Part shown: positions 1,050-39,780 of the stretch, piece after piece | Position numbering within the stretch: the first letter of the stretch is position 1 | Layout: each line of letters begins with the position of its first letter | The notes under the pieces: generated by a model | The model's input: only the letters and a program-made list of their open reading frames with translations | Database searches by the model: none | What the model was told of the DNA's origin: nothing | DNA from: a bacterium | Lineage (GTDB): Bacteria; Joyebacterota; Joyebacteria; Joyebacterales; Joyebacteraceae | Direction of reading: 5' to 3' | Length of the DNA stretch: 64,000 nt | Assembly (NCBI GenBank): GCA_025774545.1 | Contig: JALGVU010000001.1 | Span: 28,573-92,572 of the forward strand | Position numbers and translations under genes: made by a program

Positions 1050-4000
1050 ATGCGACACCGCAGGTGGGTCGTGGTCCTCGCCGTCGTCCTGATCGGGGTC
1101 GTTCCTCTGATCTTCCTCGGACTCCGGGTCGCGTCGCGCCATCCCGCCGTGAAGCGCGCGGTTCTCTCCCGGATCGCACCTGAAATCCGAGGCCAGATGT
1201 CCGTGGGCGAGCTCGATATCGGGCTCGCCTCGCTCTCTTTCGGGGACGTGCTCATCGAGCTCGAGGGCGGCGGGTTCGCCTACGTTCCGTCTGCGGCCGT
1301 GAACCTGAGCTACCGGAAGCTGCTCACGACGGGCCTCAGGGCCGAGCGGTCGCTCGGAAACGTCATCGTGAGCGGACCGCGCGTCACGCTGGTCTACGGC
1401 GCCGAGCCGGACACGACCGCCGCCGCGTTCGATCTCGCCACGCTCGTCTCCGTTCTTCCCGACTACCTCGGTGTCTCGGACGCCACCCTCACGCTCGAGG
1501 ACGCCTCGACGGGACGCCGGATCGACGTCACCGGCGTCGATCTCCGACTGGAACGCCGGGAGGACGGGTCCATCGAGGGCGACGCCGTCGGCGGCTGCCT
1601 CGGGGGCGACGCGAACCTCCGAGCCGACCTTCTGTGGGACACGGCCTCGTCGACCCTTTCTGTTTCGGGCGAGCTCTCGGACGCTTCGCTCGCGCGGGCG
1701 CTTCCGTTCCCGCCGGGGCTGCCCGTCGAGCCCATCGAGGGGCGGGTGTGGGCGACCTTCGCCGGCGCCTACCCTTCAGGACGACCCGGCTCGATCGCCG
1801 TCGACTTCGGTTTCGAGGACGTCGGAGCGGAGTTCCCCGGCGTCGGCGAGCGGCTCGATCGCGTCGCGGGCGAGGGTCGGTTCGACGGCGACGTCGTCGC
1901 CTTCTCGCGGCTCGCGGGCGCGTGGCGCACATCCGAGTGGAGCGCCGCGGGGGCCTTCTGTCTCTCGGCGTGCGACCTCGAGGGCGTCACCGTGCAGGCG
2001 CGCGAAGTCCCGCTCGAGCCGCTCGTCGCGCTCGTCGGCGGCACGCCGTACGAGCTCGCGGGGACCGTCGATCTCGAGATCGGCGTGAGGGGACCGCTCG
2101 AGACCTCGGCCGTCGAGGTGACGGCGAGCCGGGGAGCGGCGAGCGTCGCCGGCGTGCCGGTGACCTCGCTCCGCGTCGACGGCGTTCTCACGGACGAGGC
2201 GATCGAGATCGCGGTCCTTCGCGCCGAGGCGCTCGGGGCATCGATCGCCGCCACGGGGCGCCTCGTGCGTGGTGCCGCGGGCGAGCCGTGGGAACTCGAT
2301 CTCGCGGCTGACGTGACCGGACTCGACCTGGAGGCGGTCTCGTCGCGGCTCGGTCTTGGAGTGGCCGAGGGGCGGCTCGATCTTCGTGGCGTCGAGGTGC
2401 GCGGGACGACGGAGCGCCTCTTCCTCGAGTCGATCATCGCCTGGCAGGAGGCGACCTTCGCGGGGCTCGATCTCGGGACCGGCGCCGGTGGCATGCTCCT
2501 GAGCGACGGGAACCTGAGCGCGACCTTCTCCCGCGCCGACGCCGGCTACGCGATCTCAGGGTTGGTGACCGACCTCTTCGGCGATCCCGCGATCGACGCC
2601 GAGTTCGAGCTCTCGCAGCTCGCGGTCTCCTCGCTCATCGGGGATCCGACGGGGGCGGCAGTCCGGGTCACTCTCGACGGCGCCGTCCACGTGGAGGGCC
2701 GCCCCGAGGATCTCGACGTGGCGGGCTCGCTCACCGCGGAGGCGGACGGAACGCTCGCGACGCTCGCGGTCGGCGGGAAGCTCGTGGGCGACGCGGCCGG
2801 GAGGACGCTCACCCTCTCGATCGACGCTCCGGACGCGACCGTGCGGGGCGTCGACCTTCCGTTCGAGGGTCTTCTCTCGCTCGACGCGAGCGAGGTCGAG
2901 TTCGTCTCTTCGGACGTCGCCGGCGTCGGGGAGCTCGAGATCCACATCGGACTCGACGACGAGCGGCCGCTCAGTGCGGGCCTCGTCGTCTCGGGAGCGA
3001 GGCTTCCGGACATCGCGGGCCTGGTCTCGGGGACTCCTTCTCCGGACGGGCTCGCGGGCCTCGTCTTCGCCTCGGTCTCCGTGCGGGGGACCCTCGCCAG
3101 GCCCGACGCCAGCGTCCAGCTCCACGCCGGGAACGTCGAAATCGCCGGGATCGGCGGGCTCGACGCGACCCTCGTGGCCCACGTCGAGGGGAGAGACGTT
3201 CGGCTCGACGAGTTCGTGGTGAGGCACCACGGCCGGGACGTCCTCTCGGCCGAGGGCTCGGGCAGCATCGACGGCGCGCTCGCGGTGCAGATCGCGGGCC
3301 GCGGCATCCCGGGTCCGCTTCTCGGAGGGGGTCCCGAGTCCCGATTCGACGTCAAGGCCGGCCTCGGTGGACTGACGAGGCGGCCGACGTTCGACTGTCG
3401 CGTCGAGTCGTCCGAGGGCGAGTTCATGGGGATCCCGTTCGATCGGTTCTCGGCGCGGCTGACCGGCGCGGCCGGCGTGCTGGACCTGAACCCGCTCGCC
3501 ATCGAGCGGGTCCAGAGCTACCGGCTCACCGCCACGGGACGCCTGCCGTACGCGCTCATCGCGGGACGCGAGGAACCGGGAGAGGGTTCGCTCACGATCG
3601 AGGTCGACGGAGACCCGCTGGCGCTCCTCGCGGAGCTGACCGGTCTCGTCGACAGCGCGACCGGGCAGGGCCGCATGGTCGCCCATCTCGTCGTCGACGG
3701 CCGCGACGTCTCGGTCGTCCGGGGGCAGCTCGACGCGAGCGCGACGAGCGTGCGGCCCGCGGGGATCTTCGAGGAGATCACCGACCTCACGGCCCGCGCG
3801 AGCGTGACCGACGGCGCCCTGATCACCGGTGAGATCGAAGGGCTCGTCGACGGCCGCCGGGTCTCGATCGCGAGCCGGCGCAACAGGACGGCGGGCGATC
3901 GGGAGCTCGCGCCGCTTCACCTCTACGGGCTGGACCTCGGGGTGCTCGGGCTCTCGACCGATCCGGCGGGCGTCGAGGCGAACGTGCCCGGCCTCATGCT

Positions 4001-5081
4001 CGAGGGCGACGTCGGCAGGGTCGCCGCGCGGGGCCGCGACGGCGCGCCGGAGTTCCTGATCGGCGGCCCGCTCGAGCGCCCGTTCCTCTGGGGCGAGCTC
4101 GAGTACTCGGACCTGTCCTTCACGTACCCGTGGTCGAGTTCGGGCGACGGCGACGGCGGCGGCGACCTGCTCTCGCGCGCCGAGTGGTCGATCTCCATGG
4201 TCGCGGGGAGGAACCTCTGGTACCGGCGCCCCGACGCGAACCTCAAAATCGAGCGGGGAGGCGCGCTCGATTTCGTGGGGACACCGGCCGACGGCGGGCT
4301 CTGCGTCGCCGGGCGCCTGGAGTCGAGCACCGGCACGGTCACCTACGCGAGCAACGACTTCGGCGTCAAGCTCGCGTCCGTCGATTTTCCGCCGTTCTGC
4401 GAGCCCCCGAGGTTCTACGTCGAGGCCGAGACGCGCGTCGACGACGGCACGACCGTCTCGCTCACGATCGACTCGATCGAGGCCGCCCTCACGCTCGACG
4501 CACCGGGCGCGACGCTCGACGAGACGACGCTCGTGCTCGCGTCGGACTCTCCGGACGACAACACGCGCGAGCGCATCCTCTCGAAGCTCCAGTACGGGAT
4601 GAGCTACGAGCTGCTCGAGGAGGAGGAACAGGCCGCGCTCGAGCGGAGGAGGGCCATCGGCGTTCTGGGGAGCGGCCTCTCCGGCTACGTGATGCGCCCG
4701 CTCTTGGCACCTGTCGAGGCACGAATCAGGCGGAGCCTCCGGCTCGACCTCGTCAGGCTCGAGGTCGACTTCCTCCAGCACTTCCTGGCCCAGATCGACC
4801 GGTGGAACGCGCAGGCCAGCACGTCGTCCTACGAGCCGTTCCTCTCGAAGTCGCGCGTGACCTTCGGCAAGTACGTGTCGAGGGACTGGCTCCTGTCGTA
4901 CGTCGGGTTCGCCGAGAGCTTCGAGGAGGACCTCGGCGACCAACGACTGGGCCTCCGAAGTGAGCTCGGGATTGAATACGAGGTGTCACGCAACACGTCT
5001 CTCTCTCTGAGGATGGTCTACGACCCGTCCTTCTCGGGCTGGGACCGGAAGATCGCGATCGAGAACCGGTACGAGTTCTAG
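1050..5081 (+). CDS. tamB: Translocation and assembly module protein TamB (AsmA-like, DUF490 C-terminus)
   Basis: 1343 aa with an N-terminal signal-anchor helix and a long beta-rich body. C-terminal DUF490-like region ends in YEF. Sits directly upstream of bamA. Confidence 0.7.
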   Translation: MRHRRWVVVLAVVLIGVVPLIFLGLRVASRHPAVKRAVLSRIAPEIRGQMSVGELDIGLASLSFGDVLIELEGGGFAYVPSAAVNLSYRKLLTTGLRAERSLGNVIVSGPRVTLVYGAEPDTTAAAFDLATLVSVLPDYLGVSDATLTLEDASTGRRIDVTGVDLRLERREDGSIEGDAVGGCLGGDANLRADLLWDTASSTLSVSGELSDASLARALPFPPGLPVEPIEGRVWATFAGAYPSGRPGSIAVDFGFEDVGAEFPGVGERLDRVAGEGRFDGDVVAFSRLAGAWRTSEWSAAGAFCLSACDLEGVTVQAREVPLEPLVALVGGTPYELAGTVDLEIGVRGPLETSAVEVTASRGAASVAGVPVTSLRVDGVLTDEAIEIAVLRAEALGASIAATGRLVRGAAGEPWELDLAADVTGLDLEAVSSRLGLGVAEGRLDLRGVEVRGTTERLFLESIIAWQEATFAGLDLGTGAGGMLLSDGNLSATFSRADAGYAISGLVTDLFGDPAIDAEFELSQLAVSSLIGDPTGAAVRVTLDGAVHVEGRPEDLDVAGSLTAEADGTLATLAVGGKLVGDAAGRTLTLSIDAPDATVRGVDLPFEGLLSLDASEVEFVSSDVAGVGELEIHIGLDDERPLSAGLVVSGARLPDIAGLVSGTPSPDGLAGLVFASVSVRGTLARPDASVQLHAGNVEIAGIGGLDATLVAHVEGRDVRLDEFVVRHHGRDVLSAEGSGSIDGALAVQIAGRGIPGPLLGGGPESRFDVKAGLGGLTRRPTFDCRVESSEGEFMGIPFDRFSARLTGAAGVLDLNPLAIERVQSYRLTATGRLPYALIAGREEPGEGSLTIEVDGDPLALLAELTGLVDSATGQGRMVAHLVVDGRDVSVVRGQLDASATSVRPAGIFEEITDLTARASVTDGALITGEIEGLVDGRRVSIASRRNRTAGDRELAPLHLYGLDLGVLGLSTDPAGVEANVPGLMLEGDVGRVAARGRDGAPEFLIGGPLERPFLWGELEYSDLSFTYPWSSSGDGDGGGDLLSRAEWSISMVAGRNLWYRRPDANLKIERGGALDFVGTPADGGLCVAGRLESSTGTVTYASNDFGVKLASVDFPPFCEPPRFYVEAETRVDDGTTVSLTIDSIEAALTLDAPGATLDETTLVLASDSPDDNTRERILSKLQYGMSYELLEEEEQAALERRRAIGVLGSGLSGYVMRPLLAPVEARIRRSLRLDLVRLEVDFLQHFLAQIDRWNAQASTSSYEPFLSKSRVTFGKYVSRDWLLSYVGFAESFEEDLGDQRLGLRSELGIEYEVSRNTSLSLRMVYDPSFSGWDRKIAIENRYEF

Positions 5082-27274: not shown

Positions 27275-29281
27275 ATGAGGCTCTTCCTGAGGCTCCTGGG
27301 CTACGTGAGACCGTACTGGCGCCGCCTTCTGGCGGCGTTGGCTTGCATGGCCGTCTTTGCGGTCGTCTCGACGGTCTCGCTCGGCATGATCCTGCCGTTC
27401 GTCAACATGCTCTTCGAGCCCGACGCGCTCATGGAGGAGACGGGAGGAGGGAGCGCCGGCGGCCTCGCGGCGGCCGACGGGGAGGGCGGTCTCGCGGCGG
27501 CCGATGCGGAGGGGGGGCCTGCGACGACCGATGCGGGCGGCGCTCGCAGCGCGGTCGTCGGGAACGCGGGACCTTCCGATCCGCTCTCGGCGGTGACGGG
27601 GGGGGGCGCGGCGCCGATCGAGGGGTTCAAGGAGACCGTGCGGGTCCGCGTTCTCGCGTTCTTCGCGAGCGACTCGCCGGACAAGGCGATCGGGAAGATC
27701 TGCCTCGTGCTTCTCGTCGTGTTCCTCATCAAGAACCTCTTCGGGTATCTGCAGACGTTCCTCATGATCACCGTCGAGCAGGGCGTGATCCGCGACATCA
27801 GGAACGTGCTCTTCTCGCACCTGTCCGTGCTCTCGCTCTCGTTCTTCCACGGCAAGCGCACCGGGCAACTCATCTCGCGGATCACGAACGACGTCGGGCT
27901 GGTGAAGCGGGCTCTCGTCGCCACGTTCGCGAATCTCTTCCGGGAGTCTCTCCTCGTTGTGTTCTACCTGGGCATCTCCTTCTGGATCAGCTGGCGGCTT
28001 GCGCTCATCACCTTCGTCGTGATGCCGCCGTTCTTCCTTCTGGTCGCCAGGATCGGCCGGAGGCTGCGCAAGCGGAGCGCGAGGATCCAGGAGCGAATGG
28101 CCGACATCACGTCGACCCTGCAGGAGTCGATCTCCGGGATCAGGGTCGTGAAGGCGTTCGGGATGGAGGAGTACGAGCAGAAGCGGTTCTTCAAGAACAC
28201 GTGGGACTTCTTCCGCGCGACGATCCGCATGGAGCTTCTGGGAGCCCTCGCGGCGCCGCTGGTCGAGTACCTAGGTGTGATCGGCATCGTGCTCGTGCTG
28301 TGGTACGGCGCGAGGCAGGTCCTCCTCGAAGGCGGCATCGGTCCCGACTGGTTCCTCATCTTCCTCGCTTCGACGCTCTCCACGATGCAGCCGCTCCGGA
28401 AGATCTCACGCGCGAACAACGAGCTCCAGGTCGGTCTGGCGGCGGCCAAACGGATCTTCGACGTCGTCGACACACCTTCGTCGATCGTCTCGAGGCCCGG
28501 GGCGCAGGTGGTCGCGGGATTCGACGATCGTGTCCGCTACGAGGATGTCTCGTTTCGGTACGACACTGGCGACGACGTCCTCCGATCGATCGACCTCGAG
28601 ATCAAGCGGGGCGAGATCGTCGCCATCGTCGGGCCGAGCGGCGCCGGTAAGTCGACGCTCCTCGATCTCCTGCCGCGGTTCTACGATCCGACGGCGGGGC
28701 GGATCACGATCGACGGGCGGGATCTCAAGGACGTCGACCTCGCGTCGCTGAGGCGGCTCATGGGGATCGTGACGCAGGAGACGATCCTCTTCAACGACAC
28801 GGTCAGGAACAACATCGCGTACGGCCTCGAGGGCGCCGGGATCGAGGAGATCGTCGCCGCGGCCCACGCGGCCAACGCCCACCGTTTCATCGAGGGCATG
28901 CCGAACGGGTACGACACCGTGATCGGCGAGCGGGGCGCCATGGTCTCCGGCGGCGAGCGGCAGCGCATTGCCATCGCCCGCGCGATCCTCAAGAACCCGC
29001 CCGTGCTCATCTTCGACGAGGCGACGTCGTCCCTCGACACGGAGTCGGAGCGGCTCGTGCAGGAGGCCATCGAACATCTGCTCTCGGGCAGGACGGTGCT
29101 CCTGATCGCGCACAGGCTCTCGACCATCAGGAACGCCGACCGGATCGTCGTGATGGACGGCGGGAGGGTCAGGGAGACCGGCACGCACCAGGAGCTCATG
29201 GACTCGGGGGGGCTCTATCGGCACCTCTACGACATGCAATTCAGGGACGAGCCGATCGGTCCGCGCTCGAGAGCCGGATAG
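27275..29281 (+). CDS. msbA: Lipid A export ABC transporter permease/ATPase MsbA, with ~75-aa low-complexity insertion in the first extracytoplasmic loop
   Basis: Six-helix TMD. Walker A GPSGAGKST, signature LSGGERQRIAIARA, Walker B ILIFDEATS. The G/A/D/E-rich insert (GGLAAADGEGGLAAADAEGG) lies between TM1 and TM2. Confidence 0.88.
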   Translation: MRLFLRLLGYVRPYWRRLLAALACMAVFAVVSTVSLGMILPFVNMLFEPDALMEETGGGSAGGLAAADGEGGLAAADAEGGPATTDAGGARSAVVGNAGPSDPLSAVTGGGAAPIEGFKETVRVRVLAFFASDSPDKAIGKICLVLLVVFLIKNLFGYLQTFLMITVEQGVIRDIRNVLFSHLSVLSLSFFHGKRTGQLISRITNDVGLVKRALVATFANLFRESLLVVFYLGISFWISWRLALITFVVMPPFFLLVARIGRRLRKRSARIQERMADITSTLQESISGIRVVKAFGMEEYEQKRFFKNTWDFFRATIRMELLGALAAPLVEYLGVIGIVLVLWYGARQVLLEGGIGPDWFLIFLASTLSTMQPLRKISRANNELQVGLAAAKRIFDVVDTPSSIVSRPGAQVVAGFDDRVRYEDVSFRYDTGDDVLRSIDLEIKRGEIVAIVGPSGAGKSTLLDLLPRFYDPTAGRITIDGRDLKDVDLASLRRLMGIVTQETILFNDTVRNNIAYGLEGAGIEEIVAAAHAANAHRFIEGMPNGYDTVIGERGAMVSGGERQRIAIARAILKNPPVLIFDEATSSLDTESERLVQEAIEHLLSGRTVLLIAHRLSTIRNADRIVVMDGGRVRETGTHQELMDSGGLYRHLYDMQFRDEPIGPRSRAG

Positions 29282-30320: not shown

Positions 30321-31345
30321 GGTGTCTCGTCGTCCAGACCGCGTTCCTCGGAGACGCCATCCTGACGCTCCCGCTCGCGCGGCTCGTCCGCGGCCTCGAG
30401 GGCGTCACGTGGGTGGGCGTCGTCGCGGCACCGGCGGGGGCCGAGTTCCTGAGGACCCAGCGCGGTCTCGACGAGGTCCTCGTCTACGACAAGCACGGGG
30501 CGGACGGCGGAGCGCGCGGCGTGCGCAGGATCACCGGGACGCTCCGCTCGCGCGGGGTCGACGTGGCGTTCGTCCCGCACCGGTCGTTCCGGAGCGCGCT
30601 CGTGACGGCGCTCGCACGGATCCCGCGCCGCGTCGGCTTCGACGAGAGCGGAGGGCGCCTTCTTCTGACCGACCGCGTGTCGTACCGCGCGTACCCGCAC
30701 GAGATCGAACGGACTTCGAGCCTGATTCGGATCGTCGGAGGGACGCTGCCCCGCGGTCGGGTTCCGTTCGAGATCGACGTGCCGGCGAACGGTGCCGAGG
30801 TCGTCGACGAGGCGCTCGGCGGGCTCGGGGTGCCGCGCGACGCGGCGGTCGTCGGAATCGCTCCCGGCAGCCGGTGGCCGACCAAACGCTGGGATCCCGT
30901 GAGGTTCGCGAGCGTCGCCGACGCGCTCGTCGATGAGACGGGCGCCGCGGTCGTGCTCGTCGGAGGCGCGGGCGACGAGGAGGCGGGGGAGGCCGTCGCC
31001 GAGAGCATGCGGGTCGCGCCCGTGAACCTGATCGGGCGGACGTCGATCGCGGCGTGGCTCGGGCTGATCGCCCGGGTCCAGGTCCTGGTCTCGAACGACT
31101 CCGCCGCGGCGCACGCCGCCGCCGGCCTCAGGACACCGGTCGTCGCCGTCTTCGGCCCGACGGTGCCCGAGCAGGGCTACGCGCCCTACTCCGACGTGGC
31201 CCGGGTCGTCGGCGGTGACGTCGACTGCAGGCCGTGCGGTCGGCACGGGGGCGAGCGCTGTCGGCTGGGGACGATGGTTTGCATGGCGGAGATCGGCGTC
31301 GACGATGTTCTCGCTCCCGCGAGGGAGCTCTTGGGGAGGGCGTGA
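30317..31345 (+). CDS. ADP-heptose--LPS heptosyltransferase (GT9)
   Basis: TTG start overlaps the upstream stop (TTGA). N-terminus LRCLVVQTAFLGDAILTLP, GT9 fold. The 30188 extension of the track ORF was rejected. Confidence 0.75.
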   Translation: MRCLVVQTAFLGDAILTLPLARLVRGLEGVTWVGVVAAPAGAEFLRTQRGLDEVLVYDKHGADGGARGVRRITGTLRSRGVDVAFVPHRSFRSALVTALARIPRRVGFDESGGRLLLTDRVSYRAYPHEIERTSSLIRIVGGTLPRGRVPFEIDVPANGAEVVDEALGGLGVPRDAAVVGIAPGSRWPTKRWDPVRFASVADALVDETGAAVVLVGGAGDEEAGEAVAESMRVAPVNLIGRTSIAAWLGLIARVQVLVSNDSAAAHAAAGLRTPVVAVFGPTVPEQGYAPYSDVARVVGGDVDCRPCGRHGGERCRLGTMVCMAEIGVDDVLAPARELLGRA

Positions 31346-31348
31346 CGC

Positions 31349-32464
31349 ATGCGCCGCTCGCTCGTGATCACCGACTCGCGCGTGTGGAACGCGGAGACGG
31401 AATACGCCCTCTCCGTCGCCCGCGCGGAGGCCGAGATCGGGGTCACGGTCGAGGTCGCGGCTGCGCCGGGGAGTCCCGCCGCCGTCCGGATCGCGGACCC
31501 CATCGGGCTCGTCGAGCTCCCGGGCCCCGCCCCGTCGCGGTCGCCGGCGGACTTCCTTGCGAACGTCCGGACCATCTCGGAGGCGGTCGGCAGGCTCGCC
31601 GTCGACGTCGTGCACTCGTCGAGCTCGACGGCGCATCTCGTGGCCGCGCTTGCCGCAGGCTCGCGCGCGCGGGTCGTGCATCTGAGAGGGAGCGCGGCGG
31701 AACCCTCTGGGCGCGCTCTGAACCGGTACCTCTACCGCAGAATGACCGACGCCGTCGTCGTCTCCTCGTCGCGCGTCGAGGACTGGGTGGTCGAGCGCCT
31801 GGGCGTTCGGCCGGATCGCGTGAGACGCATTCTCGCGCCCGTGCCGGACGTATTCTTCAAGGTCGGCGAGGGAGACGACGCGCTCCGCGCTGAACTCGGG
31901 CTCGGCGCCGGCGTTCCCATCGTGCTGAACGTCGCGAGGCTCGCCCCCGTCAAGGGGCACGACGTGCTCCTCGAGGCCATGCGCGGTGTCCTCGAGGAGG
32001 TTCCCGACGCGGTCCTCATGCTCGTCGGCGAGCCCTGGTCGGGGCAGCCTGCCGCGCTTGAGGCCCGGGCGCGCGAACTCGGCATGGAACGCTCGGTCGT
32101 CTTCGCTGGTCGCCGCGAGGACGTTCCGAGGTTGCTCGCCGCGTCGACGGTCTGCGTTTCGTCCTCGATCGGAAGCGAGGAGAACTCCCGCGCGGTCGGG
32201 GAGTACATGGCCTCGGGCCGTCCTGTCGTCGCGACACGCGTCGGGGTGATCCCGGAGCTCGTCATCGACGGCCTGACCGGGGTTCTCGTTCCGCCGTCCG
32301 ATCCCGAGGCGATGGCGCGAGGTATCAGGACGGTCCTCACGGACCGGGCGATCGCGCGACGGATGGGCGTCGAGGGGAAACGCGTGGCCGAGGAGCGGTT
32401 CTCGCTCTCGGCGTTTCGGCGCGGCCTCCTCTCCGTGATCGAAGGAGTGGAGGGAGACCGATGA
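31349..32464 (+). CDS. Glycosyltransferase family 4
   Basis: GT-B fold with EX7E-type C-terminal motif region. 371 aa. Confidence 0.75.
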   Translation: MRRSLVITDSRVWNAETEYALSVARAEAEIGVTVEVAAAPGSPAAVRIADPIGLVELPGPAPSRSPADFLANVRTISEAVGRLAVDVVHSSSSTAHLVAALAAGSRARVVHLRGSAAEPSGRALNRYLYRRMTDAVVVSSSRVEDWVVERLGVRPDRVRRILAPVPDVFFKVGEGDDALRAELGLGAGVPIVLNVARLAPVKGHDVLLEAMRGVLEEVPDAVLMLVGEPWSGQPAALEARARELGMERSVVFAGRREDVPRLLAASTVCVSSSIGSEENSRAVGEYMASGRPVVATRVGVIPELVIDGLTGVLVPPSDPEAMARGIRTVLTDRAIARRMGVEGKRVAEERFSLSAFRRGLLSVIEGVEGDR

Positions 32465-32510
32465 GGACCGCGCGCGACGGATCGGAGCACGCGGGACTTG
32501 AGGGAGACCG

Positions 32511-33620
32511 ATGAGGATCGCGTTCGTCAATTCGATGCGCTCGCTCGGCGGTGGCGAACGATGGATCGTCGAGGCCGCCCGGGGACTCGCCGACCGCGGC
32601 CACGAGATCGCTGTCGCGGCGCGATCGGGGAGCGAGCTCGCGCGTCGGAGCAGGGCCTCGGGCCACGCGACGATCGAGCTGCCGATGAGTGGCGACGGCG
32701 ATCTCGGTTCCGTCGTCCGGCTCTCGAGCTGGTTCGCGCGGAGGCGATCCCAGATTGTGTGCGCGAGCGTCCAACGGGCCGTCCGCATCGGTTCCCTCGC
32801 CGCGAGGCTCGCCAGGGTCGCCGCCGTGGTCGAACGGCGCGGCCTCTCGTTTCCTCCGAAGATCTCCGCTCTGAACCGTTTCACCTACGGGCGCCTCGTG
32901 AGCCGGGTCATCGCGAACTGCGCCGCGATCAGCGACGGCCTCCTCGAGACCGGTCTCCTGCCCGCCTCGCGCATCGTCGTGATTCCGAACGGGATCGATC
33001 CGGACCGGGTCCCGACGGGCGGGGGCGAGGCGGTGCGCGAGGAGCTCGGCGTCGCTCCCGACGCGCCGCTCGTGGCGATCGTCGGGCGCCTGGTGCGGGA
33101 CAAGGGGCACGCGGACGCCTTCGCCGCCTTCGCGTCGGTCGTTCGGGAGCTGCCGCGGGCGAGGCTCCTCGTCGTGGGCGACGGGAAGCTGCGGGACGAG
33201 CTCCGCCACCTCGCTTCCGGCATCGAGCCCGCCGGCTCGATCATCTTCGCCGGGCACAGGCCCGACGTCCCGGCGATCCTCGACGCTGCCGACGTCGTGG
33301 CGGTGACGAGCCTGCGCGAGGGCATGCCCCACGTGATCCTCGAGGCCATGACCGCCGGCACGCCCGTCGCGGCGACTACCGTCGCGGGCATCCCGGAGAT
33401 GATCGAGGGCGGGCGCGACGGGATCCTCGTTCTGCCGGACTCACCCGAGGAGATGGCGCGGGCCCTTCTCACGATCCTCACGGACGGGGAGCGTGCCGCA
33501 CGGTTCGCCGAGGCGGCGAGGCGCCGCGTCGAGACGGAGTTCTCGCTCACGGGGATGATCGACCGAGTCGAGCGCTGCTTCGCCGAGGAGATAGAAGCGG
33601 TGGCGCGGGGGGAGCGATAG
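32511..33620 (+). CDS. Glycosyltransferase family 4
   Basis: GT4 fold (MRIAFVNS..., GMPHVILEAMTAGTPVAAT). 369 aa. Confidence 0.8.
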   Translation: MRIAFVNSMRSLGGGERWIVEAARGLADRGHEIAVAARSGSELARRSRASGHATIELPMSGDGDLGSVVRLSSWFARRRSQIVCASVQRAVRIGSLAARLARVAAVVERRGLSFPPKISALNRFTYGRLVSRVIANCAAISDGLLETGLLPASRIVVIPNGIDPDRVPTGGGEAVREELGVAPDAPLVAIVGRLVRDKGHADAFAAFASVVRELPRARLLVVGDGKLRDELRHLASGIEPAGSIIFAGHRPDVPAILDAADVVAVTSLREGMPHVILEAMTAGTPVAATTVAGIPEMIEGGRDGILVLPDSPEEMARALLTILTDGERAARFAEAARRRVETEFSLTGMIDRVERCFAEEIEAVARGER

Positions 33621-33624
33621 GCGC

Positions 33625-34722
33625 ATGGGGAAGAGGGCGTTCCATCCGGCCGACGTTCGCGCGATCCTCGTCGTCAGGCTCTACTTCGTGGGCGACGTTC
33701 TGCTCGCGACGCCGGTCCTGGAGGCCCTCAGGGCGACGTTTCCCGATGCTGGCATCACGACGCTCATCAAGCGGAGGGCGCGCGACGTGCTTCTGGAGAA
33801 CCCTCACGTGGACGAGGTCCTCGAGTACGACGCCGTGCCGCACTACCACAGCCCGCGGTGGCTCTGGCGGCTCGCCCAGACCTTGAGGCGCCGGCGGTTC
33901 GACCTCGCCGTCGATCTCACAGGCGACATGAGAAGCTCCTGGCTCCTGTTCGCCGCCGACCCGGCCTTCCGCGTGGGGGTGAACCACGCCGGGGCCGGTT
34001 TCCTCCTGGACAGGAGGAGGCCCTACCGCTCGCCGGGACACGTCGTCGACCACCTCGTCTCGGTGGTCGAGACGGTCGGCGCGGGCGTCACGGGGGAACC
34101 GTCCCCCAGGATCTACCTCACGCTCGACGAGATTTCGAGGGCGGGCGCGCTCCTGGCTGAGGGCGGTCTCGGCGACGGCTCACCGTTCGTCCTGATGTCG
34201 CCGGGCGCCAATTGGGCGTACCGCCGGTGGCCGGCCGATCGGTTCGGGCGGCTGGCGGCGCGTGTCCTCGAGCGGACGGGCCTCCGGAGCGTCGTCGCGG
34301 GGACGGCGGAGGACGCCCCGCTCGCTGAGAGCGTGGTCGCGGCGTCCTCGGGCGCGGCGGTCAGCGTCGCGGGCCGGACGGGGCTCCGAGAGCTCGCGGG
34401 CCTCGCGGGCCTCGCGCGCGCGTTCGTCGGGAACGACAGCGGCCCGATGCACGTCGCGGCGTCCCAGGGCACGCCGGTCGTGGCGCTCTTCGGTCCGAAC
34501 ACGCCCACGCGGTTCGCCCCGCGGGGCGCGCCGTCTCGCGTCATCTGGCCGGACTACCCATGCAGTCCGTGCAGCCAGAAGCGGTGCGTGCGCCGCGAGG
34601 ACCCGTGCATGGAGTCGATCGAGGTCGGAGCGGTGCTCGAGGCGCTCGAGGAGCTCCTCGACGGACGGCGAGGCCGTCCGCGGGCGCCGGTCGGCGACGA
34701 GCGGAGGAGCGAACCTCGGTGA
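33625..34722 (+). CDS. ADP-heptose--LPS heptosyltransferase (GT9)
   Basis: N-terminus ILVVRLYFVGDVLLATP and C-terminal GNDSGPMHVAAS motif. Confidence 0.8.
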   Translation: MGKRAFHPADVRAILVVRLYFVGDVLLATPVLEALRATFPDAGITTLIKRRARDVLLENPHVDEVLEYDAVPHYHSPRWLWRLAQTLRRRRFDLAVDLTGDMRSSWLLFAADPAFRVGVNHAGAGFLLDRRRPYRSPGHVVDHLVSVVETVGAGVTGEPSPRIYLTLDEISRAGALLAEGGLGDGSPFVLMSPGANWAYRRWPADRFGRLAARVLERTGLRSVVAGTAEDAPLAESVVAASSGAAVSVAGRTGLRELAGLAGLARAFVGNDSGPMHVAASQGTPVVALFGPNTPTRFAPRGAPSRVIWPDYPCSPCSQKRCVRREDPCMESIEVGAVLEALEELLDGRRGRPRAPVGDERRSEPR

Positions 34723-35930
34723 ACGTGCGCGCGCGCGACGTCGTCTTTCTCTCGACGAATCACTGGACGGGACTCCCGACCAGCAAGCAGCATCTCGCGG
34801 CGGTCCTCGCGCGATCGCGGCGCGTCCTGTACGTCGACCCGCCGATCGACGTCTTCTCGACCCTCGGGCGTCCCAGACGCTGGAGGAAGCTCAGGGGGCT
34901 CGCGCGGGTCGACGAACGGCTCTGGGTCCTTTCGCCGGTCGCGCTCGCGACGAGCCGGGACCCCGAATCGAGACTCGCCTTCCACCGGCGCTATGCCCCG
35001 CGCGTGCGGCGGGCCGCTCGCGCGCTCGGCTTCGTCGCGCCGATCGCGTGGTCGTTCGCCCCGGAGCATCTGGGATACGCCGGGGCAATCGACGAGTCGC
35101 TCCTGATCTACCACGCGGCCGACGAACCCGCGGCGACGAGCCCCGATCCTACCGCGACCGGCGCCATCGAGCGCGATCACATGGAGGCCGCCGACGTCGT
35201 TCTCGTGGCTTCCCGGGCGCTCCTCGATGCCAGGGCCTGGACCGGGAAGGCGCACCGTCTTCCGAACGCGGCCGACGTGAGGCACTTCGCGCGCGTGCTG
35301 GCGGGCGACCCGGAGGCGCCGGCCGAGCGGCTCGCGGCAGCCATCCTGCGCCTGCGGCAGCGGGCGGCGCGGGTGGGTCGCGTGACCGGGAGGCCCTCGA
35401 TCCTCTTCGGCGGCGCCGCGTACGAGTGGTTCGACGAGACGCTCTTTCTGGGGGCCGCCCGCGCCCGTCCCGATTGGGACTTCACCGCGGCCGGCCCGGT
35501 CGGCCGGGCGCTCGCGCGGGCGAGGCTCCCGCCGAACGTGACGCTCCTCGGGCGGCGGCCGTACAACGAGTTCCCGGAGCACGTCGCGCTCTGCGACGTC
35601 GCCGTGATCCCTCTGAGGGAGGGTGAGCAGGCGCGGAATTGCGACCCGATCGTGATGTACGAGTACCTTCTCTGTGGAAAACCGGTGGTGGCAACGCCGT
35701 TCCCGGCAGCGCTCGAGCGCCGGCCGCTCGTGAGGACGGCTCGCGGACTCGACGGGTTCGTGCGCGAGATCGAGGAGGCTCTCGAGGAGATCGACGACGC
35801 GCCTGCTGCCCGGGAGCGCATGGCGTTCGGCTACGCGAACACGTGGGAGGACCGAGCCGAGACCGCTCTCGGGCTCATCGCCGAGGCGGCAGGGGCGTCC
35901 GAGGATGCGACGGGCGGGGGTGCGGCATGA
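34719..35930 (+). CDS. Glycosyltransferase (GT1/GT4-like GT-B fold)
   Basis: GTG start overlaps the upstream stop. Begins VNVRARDVVFLSTNHW. C-terminal half has GT-B nucleotide-binding features. The 34560 extension was rejected. Confidence 0.55.
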   Translation: MNVRARDVVFLSTNHWTGLPTSKQHLAAVLARSRRVLYVDPPIDVFSTLGRPRRWRKLRGLARVDERLWVLSPVALATSRDPESRLAFHRRYAPRVRRAARALGFVAPIAWSFAPEHLGYAGAIDESLLIYHAADEPAATSPDPTATGAIERDHMEAADVVLVASRALLDARAWTGKAHRLPNAADVRHFARVLAGDPEAPAERLAAAILRLRQRAARVGRVTGRPSILFGGAAYEWFDETLFLGAARARPDWDFTAAGPVGRALARARLPPNVTLLGRRPYNEFPEHVALCDVAVIPLREGEQARNCDPIVMYEYLLCGKPVVATPFPAALERRPLVRTARGLDGFVREIEEALEEIDDAPAARERMAFGYANTWEDRAETALGLIAEAAGASEDATGGGAA

Positions 35931-36080
35931 CACGCGGGGAGACGCCATGACGCGCGGGTGCGGCATGACACGGGGGTGCGGCATGACACGCGGGGAGACG
36001 CCATGACACGGGGGTGCGGCATGACGCCCGGCTGCGGCGTGACACGCGGGTGCGGCGTGACGCCCGGGGAGGCGGCATGA
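35923..36080 (+). repeat. Tandem array of nine 18/20-nt units (consensus GGGTGCGGCATGACACGC / GGGGAGACGCCATGACACGC), each an SD-like tract plus ATG/GTG; encodes ATGA-overlapping micro-ORFs
   Basis: ATG/GTG at 35927, 35947, 35965, 35983, 36003, 36021, 36039, 36057, 36077. Spacing follows 20,18,18,20,18,18,18,20 (56-nt super-period). Micro-ORFs are MTRGETP*, MTRGCGMTRGCGMTRGETP* and MTRGCGMTPGCGVTRGCGVTPGEAA*. Each stop overlaps the next start as ATGA. Confidence 0.85.
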
Positions 36081-37237
36081 GGAGGGCCGCGGGCTTCTTC
36101 GACGGCGTGCAGGCGTTCGGGTTCGGGGCCGTGCTCCTCGCGCTCCCGATCTCCGAGGCCGCGAAGTCGATCGGTCTCGGTCTCGCCGTCGTCGGCTTCG
36201 TGGGGAAGCTCCTCGCCGGTCACCGGCCGAAGCTCGGGAGCCGGTCGGCCCACGCGGTGCTCGCTCTCTACCTCGCGCTGGCGGCGCTCTCGGTCGCGTT
36301 CGCGGACGGCCAGTTCCGGAGACCCGAGGAGCTGGTCACGCTTGCGTCGACGCTCGTTCTTTTTCCGCTCGCGCTCGACGCGTGCCGCGCTCGTCCGAGC
36401 CGCCGCGTGCTGTTCGTCGGGCTCATCATCGCTGGCGCGACCGTGGCGGCTCTTCTGGGATACGCGCAGGCCATGATCGAGGGGAGGCTCAGGCTCAATC
36501 TCCCGTCGGTCGAGAACCCGATCCCCGCTGCGGAGTACCTGGGCGCCGCCCTCGCCGCCGGCGTGGGGCTCGGGTTCTTCGAGCTTCGCGCGGCGATCGT
36601 GGGGCCGCTCATCGGGTTCTCGTGCGGAACGTACGTCCTGGCGCTCCTCATGACGAAGTCGCGAGGACCGCTCGTCGGCGCCGTCGTCGGAACGGCCGCC
36701 GCGGTGGCCGCAAACATGAGACGCCGGTACGCGCTTCTCCTGGTTGCCCTCGCCATCGTCGCGCTCGCGTGCTTCGCGCGCCTGAACCCGGAGTCGCGCT
36801 TCGTCGGATACCGCGTCACGGGCGACATCCGGGTCTGGACGTGGAGCCAGACGATCGACCGCATCCGGGAGCGACCGTTGCTGGGGCACGGGCTCGGGAG
36901 CTTCTCGCGTCTCGGGATTGTCTACCGGGACGAGGCCATCGTGGAGCCTCAGGTCAACGCGCACAACGTCTGGCTGAACGCCGCCGCGGAGACGGGCATT
37001 CTCGGATGTGGCGCGCTCTCGCTGTTTCTGGTAATAGGTATACGTGACGTCGTTCGCGCGATCCGGCGCGCACGCGGGGGGCGGCTCGCCCGGGCGGTGG
37101 GCGTCGCCGCGCTCGCGGCGTCGCTCGCGCTCGTCGCGTCCGGGCTCTTCTCGGTATCGACCGACGCTGAGCCGGGGATGCTGCTCTTCGCGCTTCTCGC
37201 CATCGGAGCGGCAGGAGGCTCCGGGAGACAGACCTGA
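36077..37237 (+). CDS. O-antigen ligase family membrane protein (WaaL/Wzy_C-like)
   Basis: About 10 TM helices. Wzy_C region (TKSRGPLVGAVVG ... GHGLGSF). ATG preceded by GGGAGG. The track ORF from 36014 begins inside the repeat array. Confidence 0.75.
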   Translation: MRRAAGFFDGVQAFGFGAVLLALPISEAAKSIGLGLAVVGFVGKLLAGHRPKLGSRSAHAVLALYLALAALSVAFADGQFRRPEELVTLASTLVLFPLALDACRARPSRRVLFVGLIIAGATVAALLGYAQAMIEGRLRLNLPSVENPIPAAEYLGAALAAGVGLGFFELRAAIVGPLIGFSCGTYVLALLMTKSRGPLVGAVVGTAAAVAANMRRRYALLLVALAIVALACFARLNPESRFVGYRVTGDIRVWTWSQTIDRIRERPLLGHGLGSFSRLGIVYRDEAIVEPQVNAHNVWLNAAAETGILGCGALSLFLVIGIRDVVRAIRRARGGRLARAVGVAALAASLALVASGLFSVSTDAEPGMLLFALLAIGAAGGSGRQT

Positions 37238-37836
37238 TGGGCACAAGACGACTGGCCGTCTTCCTTGACAGGGACGGGACGATCAACGTCGAGCGCGGCT
37301 ACGTGACTCGGCCCGAGGACCTCGGGTTGATCGATGGCGCCGGGGGCGCGATCCGTGCGCTGAACGACGCGGGTCTCCTCGCCGTCGTGGTCAGCAACCA
37401 GTCGGGCGTCGCGCGCGGGCTCATGAGCGAGGATGACCTTGCTCGAGTGCACGAGGCGCTCGAGCGGCTCCTCGAACGGGAGGGCGCGCGGCTCGACGGC
37501 GCCTACTACTGTCCGAATTACCCCGAGGGCGTCGACGTCCGATTCACGCGGGACTTGTCGTGCCGCAAGCCGAACACCGGGATGCTCGAACTCGCGGAGC
37601 GCGAGCTCGACGTCGACCTCGCCCGGAGCGTCATGGTCGGCGACTTCGCGACCGACATCGAGCTGGCCAACCGCGCCGGGATGCCGGGCGTCCTCGTGCT
37701 GACGGGGAAGGGAACCGAAACGCTCGAGCGAGCGGCCGAGCTGGGGCTCGAGATCGCCGCCGCGGTTCCGGACATCGGCGCGGCGGTTGCGTGGATCCTC
37801 GAACGGGGGCGCGCGGACGAAGGAGACGGACGATGA
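37237..37836 (+). CDS. gmhB: D-glycero-D-manno-heptose 1,7-bisphosphate phosphatase GmhB (HAD-IIIA)
   Basis: FLDRDGTIN motif I, CxC/zinc region CPNYPEGVD...CRKP, motif GDFATD. ATG overlaps the upstream stop. Confidence 0.88.
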   Translation: MGTRRLAVFLDRDGTINVERGYVTRPEDLGLIDGAGGAIRALNDAGLLAVVVSNQSGVARGLMSEDDLARVHEALERLLEREGARLDGAYYCPNYPEGVDVRFTRDLSCRKPNTGMLELAERELDVDLARSVMVGDFATDIELANRAGMPGVLVLTGKGTETLERAAELGLEIAAAVPDIGAAVAWILERGRADEGDGR

Positions 37837-37867
37837 CCGCACGTGACCCATTGTGCCTGAAGCGGGG

Positions 37868-37932
37868 GTCGCCCGACATCGGTCCGGGCGCCCCGGGACC
37901 GCCCGAGGGCGCCCGGACCGATGTCGGACGAC
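37868..37932 (+). repeat. 25-bp inverted repeat (one mismatch) with 15-nt loop
   Basis: Left arm GTCGCCCGACATCGGTCCGGGCGCC; right arm GGCGCCCGGACCGATGTCGGACGAC. Located just after the gmhB stop. Confidence 0.8.
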
Positions 37933-37952
37933 CCGGTGTCGGTCGGCACCGG

Positions 37953-38786
37953 GTGCGGCGCGCGGGCCTCGGGCGGTCCCGGGCCCGACGCGCCGCGCTC
38001 GGGCCGACGAGCGTCCGTCGGCTCGCGCTCGTCGTCTGCGCTGCCGTCCTCGTCCTCGCGTCGGCGACGCCTGCGGGCATCCCGGCGCTCGGGCCCGCGG
38101 GGGACTCGGTCGTCCCGCCGTTCGGCGTCGGCGAACGTCTCGAGTTCGACATCAAGTACGGCTTCGTCGGCGCCGGGACGGCCATCATGAGCATCCCCGA
38201 GCTCGTCCGCGAGCGCGGCTACCTCTGCTACCGCATCGTCTCGTCGGCGGAGTCGAACGCGTTCTTCTCGGTCTTCTTCACCGTGCGGGACGTCGCCGAG
38301 TCGTACCTCGACGTGCGGGACCTCGTCTCCCGCCGCTTCGAGAAACGGCTCCGCGAGGGCGATTTCCGATCGCACGACGTCGTGCTCCTCGATCACGATC
38401 GGAACGTCGCGATCTACCCCAAGAAGAAGGACCGCGTGATTCCGCTCGCTCTCGACGCGCAGGACATCCTGTCGTCGCTCTACTACGTACGGATGATGGA
38501 CCTCGAGGTCGGGAAGTCGATCTACATCGAAAACCACGCCGACAGGAAGAACTACCCGCTCGAAATCAGGGTCATCAAGAAGGAACGCATCAAGGTCCCT
38601 GCGGGGACGTTCGACTGCCTGGTCATCGAGCCGATCATGCGCGCGTCGGGGCTCTTCCGGCACGAGGGGAAACTCACGGTCTGGCTCTCGGACGACGCGC
38701 GCAAGATCCCGGTTCTCATGAAGAGCAAGGTCGTGATCGGATCCGTCTCGGCCGTCCTCACGGACGTGAAGTACGCGCGCGACTGA
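37953..38786 (+). CDS. DUF3108-domain secreted protein
   Basis: Proposed GTG start gives a signal peptide (RRAGLGRSRARRAALGPTSVRRLALVVCAAVLVLASA). The body matches DUF3108 (beta-rich, FDIKYGFVGAGTAIM...). The alternative ATG 37833 would add 40 aa spanning the inverted repeat. Confidence 0.55.
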   Translation: MRRAGLGRSRARRAALGPTSVRRLALVVCAAVLVLASATPAGIPALGPAGDSVVPPFGVGERLEFDIKYGFVGAGTAIMSIPELVRERGYLCYRIVSSAESNAFFSVFFTVRDVAESYLDVRDLVSRRFEKRLREGDFRSHDVVLLDHDRNVAIYPKKKDRVIPLALDAQDILSSLYYVRMMDLEVGKSIYIENHADRKNYPLEIRVIKKERIKVPAGTFDCLVIEPIMRASGLFRHEGKLTVWLSDDARKIPVLMKSKVVIGSVSAVLTDVKYARD

Positions 38787-38811
38787 TCGGATTCGCGACC
38801 GAGGAGGTCAC

Positions 38812-39780
38812 ATGCCGTCACAGTTTCCGGAGGCCGATCTCAAGAGGCTGTCTAGGGTGTCGATCCACGAGCGGGGAGGGAAGGTCCGCGTCGAGGACCT
38901 GGTCGACCCGTACGATCCCGGACCCGAGTTCGACCGGTTCCTTGCGACCGTGCCGCGCCTCTTCGCGGGCGCCGACCTCGCGTCGGCCGTCGACGCCGTC
39001 GCGCGCGCCGCGAGGGGCGGCAGGGCGGTCGTGGTGATGTACGGTGCGCACTTCGTGAAGTGCGGTCTGTCGCGTCTACTGATCGATCTCATGGAGAGGC
39101 GCGTCGTCACGGCGCTGGCCACGAACGGCGCGGGGGCCATCCACGACTTCGAGCTAGCGGCGTGGGGAACGACTTCCGAAGACGTCGCTGCCGGGCTCGA
39201 GGACGGGAGCTTCGGCATGTGCAGCGACACGGCGGACGCGATGAACGCGGCGGCGGCGGCGGGGCGACGGGACGGCCAGGGACTCGGCGAGGCCCTCGGA
39301 AGGAAACTCGAGGAGATGGAGGCACCGCATCGCTCATCGAGCATCGTGGCGCGCGCGCACGCCCTCGGCGTCCCGCACACGATCCACGTGGCGTTGGGGA
39401 CCGACATCATCCATCAGCACGCGACGGCGAGCGGAACCGATCTCGGCGAGACCAGCCTCAGGGACTTCCGAATCCTGGCGGCTGTCATCGGTGATCTCGA
39501 GGGAGGGGCCGTTCTCAACATCGGGTCGGCCGTGATCCTGCCGGAGGTTTTCCTGAAGGCGCTCACCGTGGCGAGGAACCTGGGCGGAAGCGCGGCGGGC
39601 TTCGCGGCGATCGGCATGGACATGAACGAGCCCTACCGCGCCGCTGTCAACGTTGTCGGCAGGCCGACCGCGCAATCCGGCATGGGGGTTGCACTTAGGG
39701 GGCGGCACGAGTTCCTCTTCCCGCTCTTCTGGGCGGCCGTTCGCCGGGCGCTCGACGCGGGCCGCGTCCCGGAAAGATAG
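38812..39780 (+). CDS. Deoxyhypusine-synthase-like (DHS-like NAD-binding fold) protein
   Basis: ATNGAGAIHDFE resembles the DHS TTAGGVEEDL motif. 322 aa. Strong SD GAGGAGG. Confidence 0.45.
   Translation: MPSQFPEADLKRLSRVSIHERGGKVRVEDLVDPYDPGPEFDRFLATVPRLFAGADLASAVDAVARAARGGRAVVVMYGAHFVKCGLSRLLIDLMERRVVTALATNGAGAIHDFELAAWGTTSEDVAAGLEDGSFGMCSDTADAMNAAAAAGRRDGQGLGEALGRKLEEMEAPHRSSSIVARAHALGVPHTIHVALGTDIIHQHATASGTDLGETSLRDFRILAAVIGDLEGGAVLNIGSAVILPEVFLKALTVARNLGGSAAGFAAIGMDMNEPYRAAVNVVGRPTAQSGMGVALRGRHEFLFPLFWAAVRRALDAGRVPER

Follow-up and report, generated by a model that had tools for sequence, protein, structure and literature searches.

In a 64,000-nt stretch of bacterial DNA (contig JALGVU010000001.1, positions 28,573 to 92,572; the whole 64-kb stretch is called the window below), a tandem array occupies positions 35905-36080 of the plus strand, between the stop codon of a glycosyltransferase (GT) gene and the start codon of a gene of the O-antigen ligase family (Wzy_C; waaL-like). 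We consider it likely that the ancestral junction at which GT and waaL were coupled has grown into this array by a lineage-specific tandem amplification, with the coupling preserved by a relay of short overlapping open reading frames (micro-ORFs). Most likely the array is a tolerated, near-neutral by-product that behaves like one of the interspersed repetitive units of mycobacteria (MIRUs), and not a dedicated switch.

An earlier, sequence-only reading of this DNA had placed nine equivalent repeat units here, with micro-ORFs joined by ATGA overlaps. The position of the array, the micro-ORFs and the overlaps were all borne out by the sequence and its translations. The tandem organization also stands, and the count becomes eight clear units and one degenerate unit rather than nine equal ones. 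The eight units (35927-36076, plus strand), which were recovered by inspection of the sequence, by Tandem Repeats Finder (TRF) and by a copy search, and which are identical in a second contig, L001, begin with ATGAC or GTGAC at 35927, 35947, 35965, 35983, 36003, 36021, 36039 and 36057, and are 20, 18, 18, 20, 18, 18, 18 and 20 nt long in that order. Units 1, 4 and 8 are of the 20-nt type, ATGACRCSCGGGGAGRCGSC; units 2, 3, 5, 6 and 7 are of the 18-nt type, RTGACRCSSGGSTGCGGC, in which the GGGGAG tract is 2 nt shorter. The degenerate unit 0, ATGCGACGGGCGGGGGTGCGGC, lies at 35905-35926 on the plus strand, inside the 3' end of the GT gene, where it encodes the final GT residues (..DATGGGAA*); its GGGGG tract (35916-35920) precedes ATG 35927.

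A higher-order repeat of 56 nt, a composite of three units (20+18+18), is superimposed on the units, with unit 1 identical in sequence to unit 4, and unit 3 to unit 5. TRF accordingly reported periods of 18 nt (7.8 copies) and 56 nt (2.4 copies, 91% matches), in arrays beginning at 35914-35921, and scored the array above every other tandem repeat of the window. A 14-mer core occurs six times against 0.81 expected and is confined, within the window, to the array locus. Between the two 56-nt blocks about 9% of positions differ. No exact repeat within the array exceeds 37 nt, so that short reads can resolve it. The region is G-rich and C-poor (84 G versus 48 C).

Three micro-ORFs of 7, 19 and 25 codons lead from the GT stop to the waaL-like start, a gap of 146 nt, through four consecutive ATGA overlaps at 35927-30, 35947-50, 36003-06 and 36077-80, each of the NTGA type in which stop and start share 4 nt (a -4 overlap). 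All three lie on the plus strand. Micro-ORF 1 (35927-35950), MTRGETP*, has an ATG that overlaps the GT stop and a TGA that overlaps ATG 35947; micro-ORF 2 (35947-36006), MTRGCGMTRGCGMTRGETP*, of 19 codons, is preceded by a Shine-Dalgarno (SD) tract, GGGGAG, at 35936-35941 and ends in a TGA overlapping ATG 36003; micro-ORF 3 (36003-36080), MTRGCGMTPGCGVTRGCGVTPGEAA*, of 25 codons, has its GGGGAG at 35992-35997, and its TGA overlaps the waaL ATG. With GGAG, GAGG or GGGGG scored as SD-like, the four restart codons carry GGGGG, GGGGAG, GGGGAG and GGGGAGG tracts 4-6 nt on their 5' sides, the arrangement of coupled gene pairs. The strongest tract of the array by sequence is GGGGAGG (36066-36072, plus strand), 4 nt 5' of ATG 36077. 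An SD before every unit had been proposed; it is present at six of the nine starts, including all four relay junctions, and missing at 35965, 36039 and 36057.

Evidence for an origin from a coupling junction comes from related genomes. The ligase gene was located in 21 species-level genomes of Candidatus Eisenbacteria relatives; the nearest other ligase homologues reach at most about 54% protein identity, and the named ones among them belong to Candidatus Eisenbacteria. In 20 of the 21, a GT orthologue (48-65% identity) is the gene immediately upstream of the ligase. In 15 loci the stop of GT and the start of the ligase share an ATGA, GTGA or TTGA, in two more they overlap by 1 nt, and the remaining junctions are short overlaps or gaps. 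An SD-like tract stands 4-18 nt 5' of the ligase start in 18 of 19 relatives, compared with 18.6% of background 15-nt windows. The array was found at the GT/ligase junction in none of the 21 relatives.

The window junction, GGGGAGGCGGC-ATGA-GG with a ligase that begins MRRAAG, can be set beside two of these. In L019 it reads GGGGGAGGCGGACG-ATGA-GG, with a ligase that begins MRFLRRAAG, and the last unit of the array together with the waaL start closely matches this L019 junction, GGGGGAGGCGGACGATGAGG. In L012 it reads GAGGAGGCCGC-ATGA-CGCGG, with a ligase that begins MTRR, and the end of micro-ORF 3 (..GEAA*) resembles the C-termini of relatives' GTs (e.g. L012 ..EEAA*). GGGGAGG at 36066-36072 together with ATGA at 36077-36080 is thus presumed, from this likeness of sequence, to be the ancestral junction.

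The same boundary has been altered by repetition in other lineages. In L013 (1656-1709) and L014 (3905-3975), 24-nt in-frame tandem repeats (2.2-3 copies, e.g. TPAVSQSD twice) sit in the 5' end of the ligase gene just 3' of the ATGA junction and lengthen its N-terminal tail. Because these tandem duplications lie at the same boundary, the GT/ligase junction seems to be a recurrent, tolerant site of slippage or tandem duplication.

We propose that the array arose as follows. In the ancestral state a single SD-ATGA overlap would have joined GT to the ligase. A segment made up of the last 14-16 nt of the GT gene, with its SD tract, and the ATGA would then have been duplicated, probably via replication slippage or unequal recombination, and a later duplication of a 56-nt block (20+18+18) would account for the identity of unit 1 with unit 4 and of unit 3 with unit 5. 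GT still ends in the first ATGA copy, and the ligase still starts in the last, which has the best SD.

How the array has stood since can be judged from the second contig. L001, a metagenome contig of the Joint Genome Institute (JGI; 6978 bp), is 99.64% identical to positions 30903-37880 of the window, with 25 single-nucleotide polymorphisms (SNPs) and no indel, and its array matches that of the window base for base. Cluster listings and exact-protein look-ups in a 15-billion-protein collection showed the gene set to be carried by two contigs only, L001 and the source contig (118,968 bp), so that the strain comparison has n=2. Since the 56-nt blocks have diverged by about 9% and the strains by 0.36%, the array must predate the strain split by far and has been retained since. 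About 0.6 SNPs would be expected in 176 nt at this divergence, and the zero SNPs in the array are therefore little informative. Unit-number polymorphism, which the earlier reading had suggested looking for, does not occur between the two strains on record; this absence of variable-number behaviour argues against a hypermutable repeat and is weak evidence, as it comes from two strains.

The relay itself follows from the lengths of the units. An 18-nt unit keeps the frame, and the next ATG becomes an internal Met; a 20-nt unit shifts the frame by two, which brings the next TGA into frame where it overlaps the next ATG. Because each unit contains ATGA and is 18 or 20 nt long, any such array is a chain of -4-coupled micro-ORFs. 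In simulations, each of the 36 possible deletions of contiguous units left either a relay or a ligase fused in frame, and each of the 36 contiguous duplications left the relay unbroken. When native units were put together at random, 5000 of 5000 arrays yielded one of these two outcomes, relay or in-frame fusion, with zero breaks. The unit before a restart codon is always of the 20-nt type, in which GGGGAG is retained, and an SD at every relay junction is therefore built in. The four-junction relay is an arithmetic by-product and not evidence of selection or design. This bears on the suggestion that the array is a termination-reinitiation ladder metering ligase expression: such a ladder is mechanistically plausible and in keeping with NTGA overlaps and with MIRUs, whereas the four ATGA junctions lend it no support as a design. 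Metering of ligase expression by the array is hypothetical.

A by-product may nevertheless work. A ribosome ending GT would re-initiate at 35927 and then at 35947, 36003 and 36077, with 7, 19 and 25 codons between, and ribosomes loading de novo at any unit's SD would join the same chain to the waaL start. The insertion would in this sense be 'self-healing', the gap having been widened to 146 nt without breaking the -4 coupling. Termination-reinitiation coupling at NTGA-type -4 and at -1 overlaps is efficient in the bacteria tested (PMC6728339, PMC10666635; reviewed in PMC12548453), and is nearly lost at gaps of about 20 nt (PMC10666635). Given this collapse, only a relay could preserve coupling across 146 nt, and we infer that the micro-ORFs are translated and that their chain probably keeps GT and ligase translation linked.

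The predicted RNA context is compatible with such a relay. No stable structure was found in the region, which folds worse than its shuffles (z = +1.43), and the minimum-free-energy fold with the G-quadruplex option contained no G-quadruplex. Rfam gave no match at E <= 1 in the region and none at gathering score in the whole 64-kb window, in which there are also no tRNA genes. Neither a promoter nor a terminator was found within the array, the promoter scan covering sigma-70-type promoters only. The G-rich, C-poor composition is the opposite of that of a Rho-utilization site. Nothing found opposes an open, translatable, operon-internal RNA.

Several points weigh against an amplified junction with a working relay. 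The 16 nt 5' of the window ATGAs share a mean of 7.2/16 identities with orthologous junctions, compared with 5.2/16 for other NTGA sites, which speaks for the proposed origin; the likeness of the units to those junctions is modest, however, and consists largely of the shared SD. Translation of the micro-ORFs and re-initiation between them are argued from the sequence. The array's best SD, GGGGAGG, belongs to the waaL start, at which initiation could be wholly de novo, and the relay would then be irrelevant. Among the units some 7-10 substitutions have spared every TGA, which by our estimate, (15/18)^8, would happen by chance about a quarter of the time; with units 1 and 4 identical and units 3 and 5 identical, the independent substitutions are too few to give a signal of purifying selection on ATG or TGA. 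With two strains, and the next relatives at about 54% or less, conservation cannot separate selection from tolerance. Finally, a dispersed, mobile origin of the array keeps a small probability, the copy search having covered the 64-kb window and 175 kb of relatives' loci.

The main rival, which we regard as unlikely though well ahead of the other alternatives, accepts the same origin and takes the array for an inert spacer: waaL would be initiated de novo only, at its own strong SD, the micro-ORFs would be untranslated or their translation would not affect waaL, and GT-waaL coupling would be lost. That the array's best SD stands 4 nt 5' of ATG 36077, that no inhibitory structure needs unfolding there, and that many genes of the window start without overlaps are all consistent with this. 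Against it, all four relay starts have SD-like tracts and stop overlaps as at the native junctions of this genome, and in the bacteria tested, ribosomes that terminate at a -4 overlap re-initiate efficiently (PMC6728339, PMC10666635); we have found no reason for an exception here.

It is less probable still, and to our minds rather doubtful, that the array, formed in situ from the junction, has been kept by selection as a MIRU-like ribosome relay or landing pad that sets the GT:ligase translation ratio. Its many sites with SD and start would then all channel ribosomes via -4 overlaps to the start of the ligase.

Phase variation of O-antigen ligation, through units gained or lost by slipped-strand events, had been put forward in the sequence-only reading; this idea, also in the form of a strong modulation, is not supported. 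A tandem repeat within a lipopolysaccharide (LPS) locus does invite it. Simple-repeat switches are classic in lipooligosaccharide (LOS) and LPS genes of Haemophilus and Neisseria. Published estimates for MIRU loci are about 1e-5 to 1e-2 changes per locus per year (PMC3635867). The array, on the other hand, lies outside both ORFs, and no OFF state appeared among the simulated deletions, duplications and reshuffled arrays; as no unit change breaks the relay or fusion, neither gene can be switched off in this way, which rules out an ON/OFF phase switch. The scan for sigma-70-type promoters found none in the array. The units have diverged, with no exact repeat beyond 37 nt, which lowers slippage, and strains 0.36% apart have identical arrays, with no other variant in the collection. 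We therefore rate a contingency locus, even a modulating one, as very unlikely.

An equally slim chance attaches to the array being partly coding, with waaL starting at GTG 36014 or 36050 and gaining N-terminal residues rich in Arg (..RHDARLRRDTRVRRDARGGG-MRRAAG..). In the waaL frame no stop intervenes back to 35987, homologues have non-conserved basic N-terminal tails that are 8-12 residues longer, and L013 and L014 have their in-frame repeats in that tail. Neither GTG has a properly spaced SD, however; both source annotations call ATG 36077, the protein P0024 begins at the equivalent Met, and ATGA with GGGGAGG fits the pattern of the ancestral junction seen in 15 relatives.

Instead of a duplication of the junction in situ, a small mobile repeat of MIRU type might have entered at the start codon of waaL and expanded there. 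MIRUs are reported to insert at start codons with coupling at -4 (PMC12548453), and the outcome would look the same. We think this improbable to a similar degree, since the unit is merely 18-20 nt, no further copy of it was found in the window or in the 175 kb of relatives' loci, the GT 3' end is itself unit-like, and the last unit matches orthologous junctions.

A wider scan of metagenomes with the pattern CATGACRC-N10-12 x3 matched at least 120 loci. Among the matches listed, nearly all were unrelated low-GC repeats, which were set aside, and there were no further strain variants. Four high-GC contigs (L067, at 3755-3900, L107, L129 and L140) have intergenic arrays of ~20-nt units (GGGCATGACACGGGGGG..) with GGCATGACRCGGGGG in common, and share a 15-mer with the window unit. 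We judged these arrays not to be homologous, as they follow a GCCCGG..CCGGGC hairpin and are intergenic rather than placed at gene junctions; they look like a separate repeat associated with repetitive extragenic palindromes (REP). In L122, an unrelated metagenome contig of 71% GC, the minus strand of the locus (~4388-4450) has an 18-nt unit repeated three times in frame, which holds the start and first codons of a gene (MTQRAD MTHRAD MTQRAD MTQTGIDK..) directly after the TGA of the upstream gene, an apparent further case of amplification at a gene junction.

The proposal of a functional product of the micro-ORFs, whether Cys-Gly repeat peptides or a signal-sensing leader acting by attenuation, has very little left in its favour. 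Open frames with starts and SDs do exist, but the peptides combine the start of waaL with the end of GT and are absent from 21 of 21 relatives, and neither a terminator, an alternative structure (z = +1.43, as above) nor an Rfam match, as would mark a leader-peptide attenuator or upstream ORF, was found. Short tandem repeats can be mis-assembled or collapsed from short reads, as the earlier reading had cautioned, yet the chance that the array is such an artefact is negligible, because it is reproduced exactly in an independent contig with 25 SNPs elsewhere, and because its units are diverged, with an exact repeat of 37 nt at most.

The amplified junction lies in an operon-like cluster in which the identities assigned earlier to its two flanking genes, GT upstream and O-antigen ligase downstream, agree with Pfam. 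A gene of the GT9 heptosyltransferase family (33625-34722, plus strand; PF01075, E 6.8e-44; also called in L001) has a stop that shares the GTGA at 34719-34722 with the GTG start of the following GT. This next gene (34719-35930, plus strand; PF13692/PF00534; called in L001) encodes the GT4-type glycosyltransferase of 403 aa, whose stop, TGA 35928-35930, lies within the first ATGA of the array. The O-antigen-ligase family (Wzy_C) gene occupies 36077-37237 on the plus strand and encodes 386 aa; its match to PF04932 (E 3.8e-15) scores 56.4 bits, above the gathering cut-off of 31.7. No NCBIfam equivalog was reached, and 'waaL' is therefore a name from context only. Its start, ATG 36077, is called alike in both source records (P0049, P0001; 386 aa), and its N-terminus, MRRAAGFFDG, resembles MKRAASFFD of P0024.

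The ligase gene overlaps the next gene by 1 nt (TGATG, 37237). This is a GmhB-like HAD phosphatase gene of the D,D-heptose 1,7-bisphosphate phosphatase family (37237-37836, plus strand; Pfam), whose score for NCBIfam NF006506, 162.5 bits, is below the cut-off of 178. NTGA or TGATG overlaps with purine tracts on their 5' sides are the usual gene joints in the operons of the window (e.g. GT9/GT at 34719-22 and ligase/GmhB at 37237). In all, the cluster has two GT9 heptosyltransferases and, besides the GT of the junction, two further GT4 enzymes and an MsbA-like ABC transporter, the context of LPS-core genes. Two minus-strand ORFs (34554-35984 and 35831-37246) were rejected as shadows, as coding composition (GC1>GC2 and high GC3) appears only in the plus-strand frames, which hold the Pfam domains.

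Nearly all confident genes of the window are on the plus strand. The ATGA overlap after the GmhB-like gene (37833-37836) opens one frame, and a 394-aa ORF with no Pfam or NCBIfam match lies at 37853-39037 in another. A 27-nt in-frame tandem repeat (27458-27536; 2.9 copies; GGLAAADGE-like) occurs close to the N-terminal part encoded by the gene of the MsbA-like ABC transporter (27275-29281). In a relative, on a 94,497-bp contig, the 600-aa protein P0007 is an O-antigen-ligase-like protein fused to a GmhB-type heptose bisphosphate phosphatase.

No feature of this kind was known to the sequence-only reading. Mycobacterial MIRUs are, in fact, intra-operon tandem repeats with ORFs that overlap the flanking genes (PMC12548453, PMC3184786). 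Described by Supply et al. 1997 (summarised in PMC12548453, PMC3184786, PMC2734929), they are 40-100-bp tandem repeats at ~41 intergenic sites in mycobacterial operons. Their ORFs overlap the flanking stop and start and are coupled downstream at -4, so that expression of the downstream gene is little affected; it has been proposed that they act in differential translation within the operon, and target duplications make them look mobile (PMC12548453, PMC3184786, PMC2734929). MIRU copy number differs between strains (PMC3635867). Like MIRUs, the array consists of tandem direct repeats inside an operon, oriented as the flanking genes, and its ORFs overlap the flanking stop and start between co-directional genes, with no promoter or terminator between. 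It differs in its units of 18/20 nt rather than 40-100 bp; in being confined to a single locus in the DNA covered by the copy search, whereas MIRUs are dispersed over ~41 loci; in deriving from the local junction and being invariant in two strains, whereas MIRUs look mobile and are variable; and in its host, which belongs to another phylum (Candidatus Eisenbacteria-like).

Other known systems share parts of this architecture. The four junctions of the array are canonical -4 overlaps, and each has its SD a few nt on the 5' side, as in termination-reinitiation pairs (PMC6728339, PMC10666635, PMC12548453), and the ancestral state in the relatives is a single such overlap. These pairs, however, join two real genes directly, whereas the array interposes three non-genic micro-ORFs. 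The synthetic bicistronic design (BCD), reportedly that of Mutalik et al. 2013, is similar in that the SD of the downstream gene lies within a short ORF, which ends in that gene's start codon and delivers ribosomes to it. In BCD the gene of interest is coupled to a short leader cistron (PMC12548453). The BCD is engineered and has one leader at the 5' end of a transcript, whereas the array is natural, with three leaders in series inside an operon. This leaves the contingency loci, with which the array shares being a tandem repeat in a surface-polysaccharide locus. In the LPS/LOS contingency loci of Haemophilus, Neisseria and Campylobacter, repeats with units of 1-7 nt lie in ORFs or promoter spacers, and a change of unit number shifts the frame. 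By contrast, no change of units in the array can inactivate either gene.

The array is a real curiosity that resembles a MIRU and not a new regulatory device, since its kind, an intra-operon repeat with mini-ORFs overlapping the flanking stop and start, is already known. Its origin is well supported, and its putative translational role is plausible.

With a working relay, two genes would stay coupled across a 146-nt insertion of junction copies, and this would explain how such an insertion is tolerated inside an operon. The array would also provide an in-situ origin for a MIRU-like architecture, without a mobile element, and its serial -4 overlaps offer a natural test object for the efficiency of each step of re-initiation. 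For annotation it gives reason for caution, in that chains of ATGA-linked micro-ORFs can follow from repeat-unit length and not from design. Should the array after all be a relay kept by selection, it would be a natural serial bicistronic design, and coupling junctions could be amplified into tunable elements.

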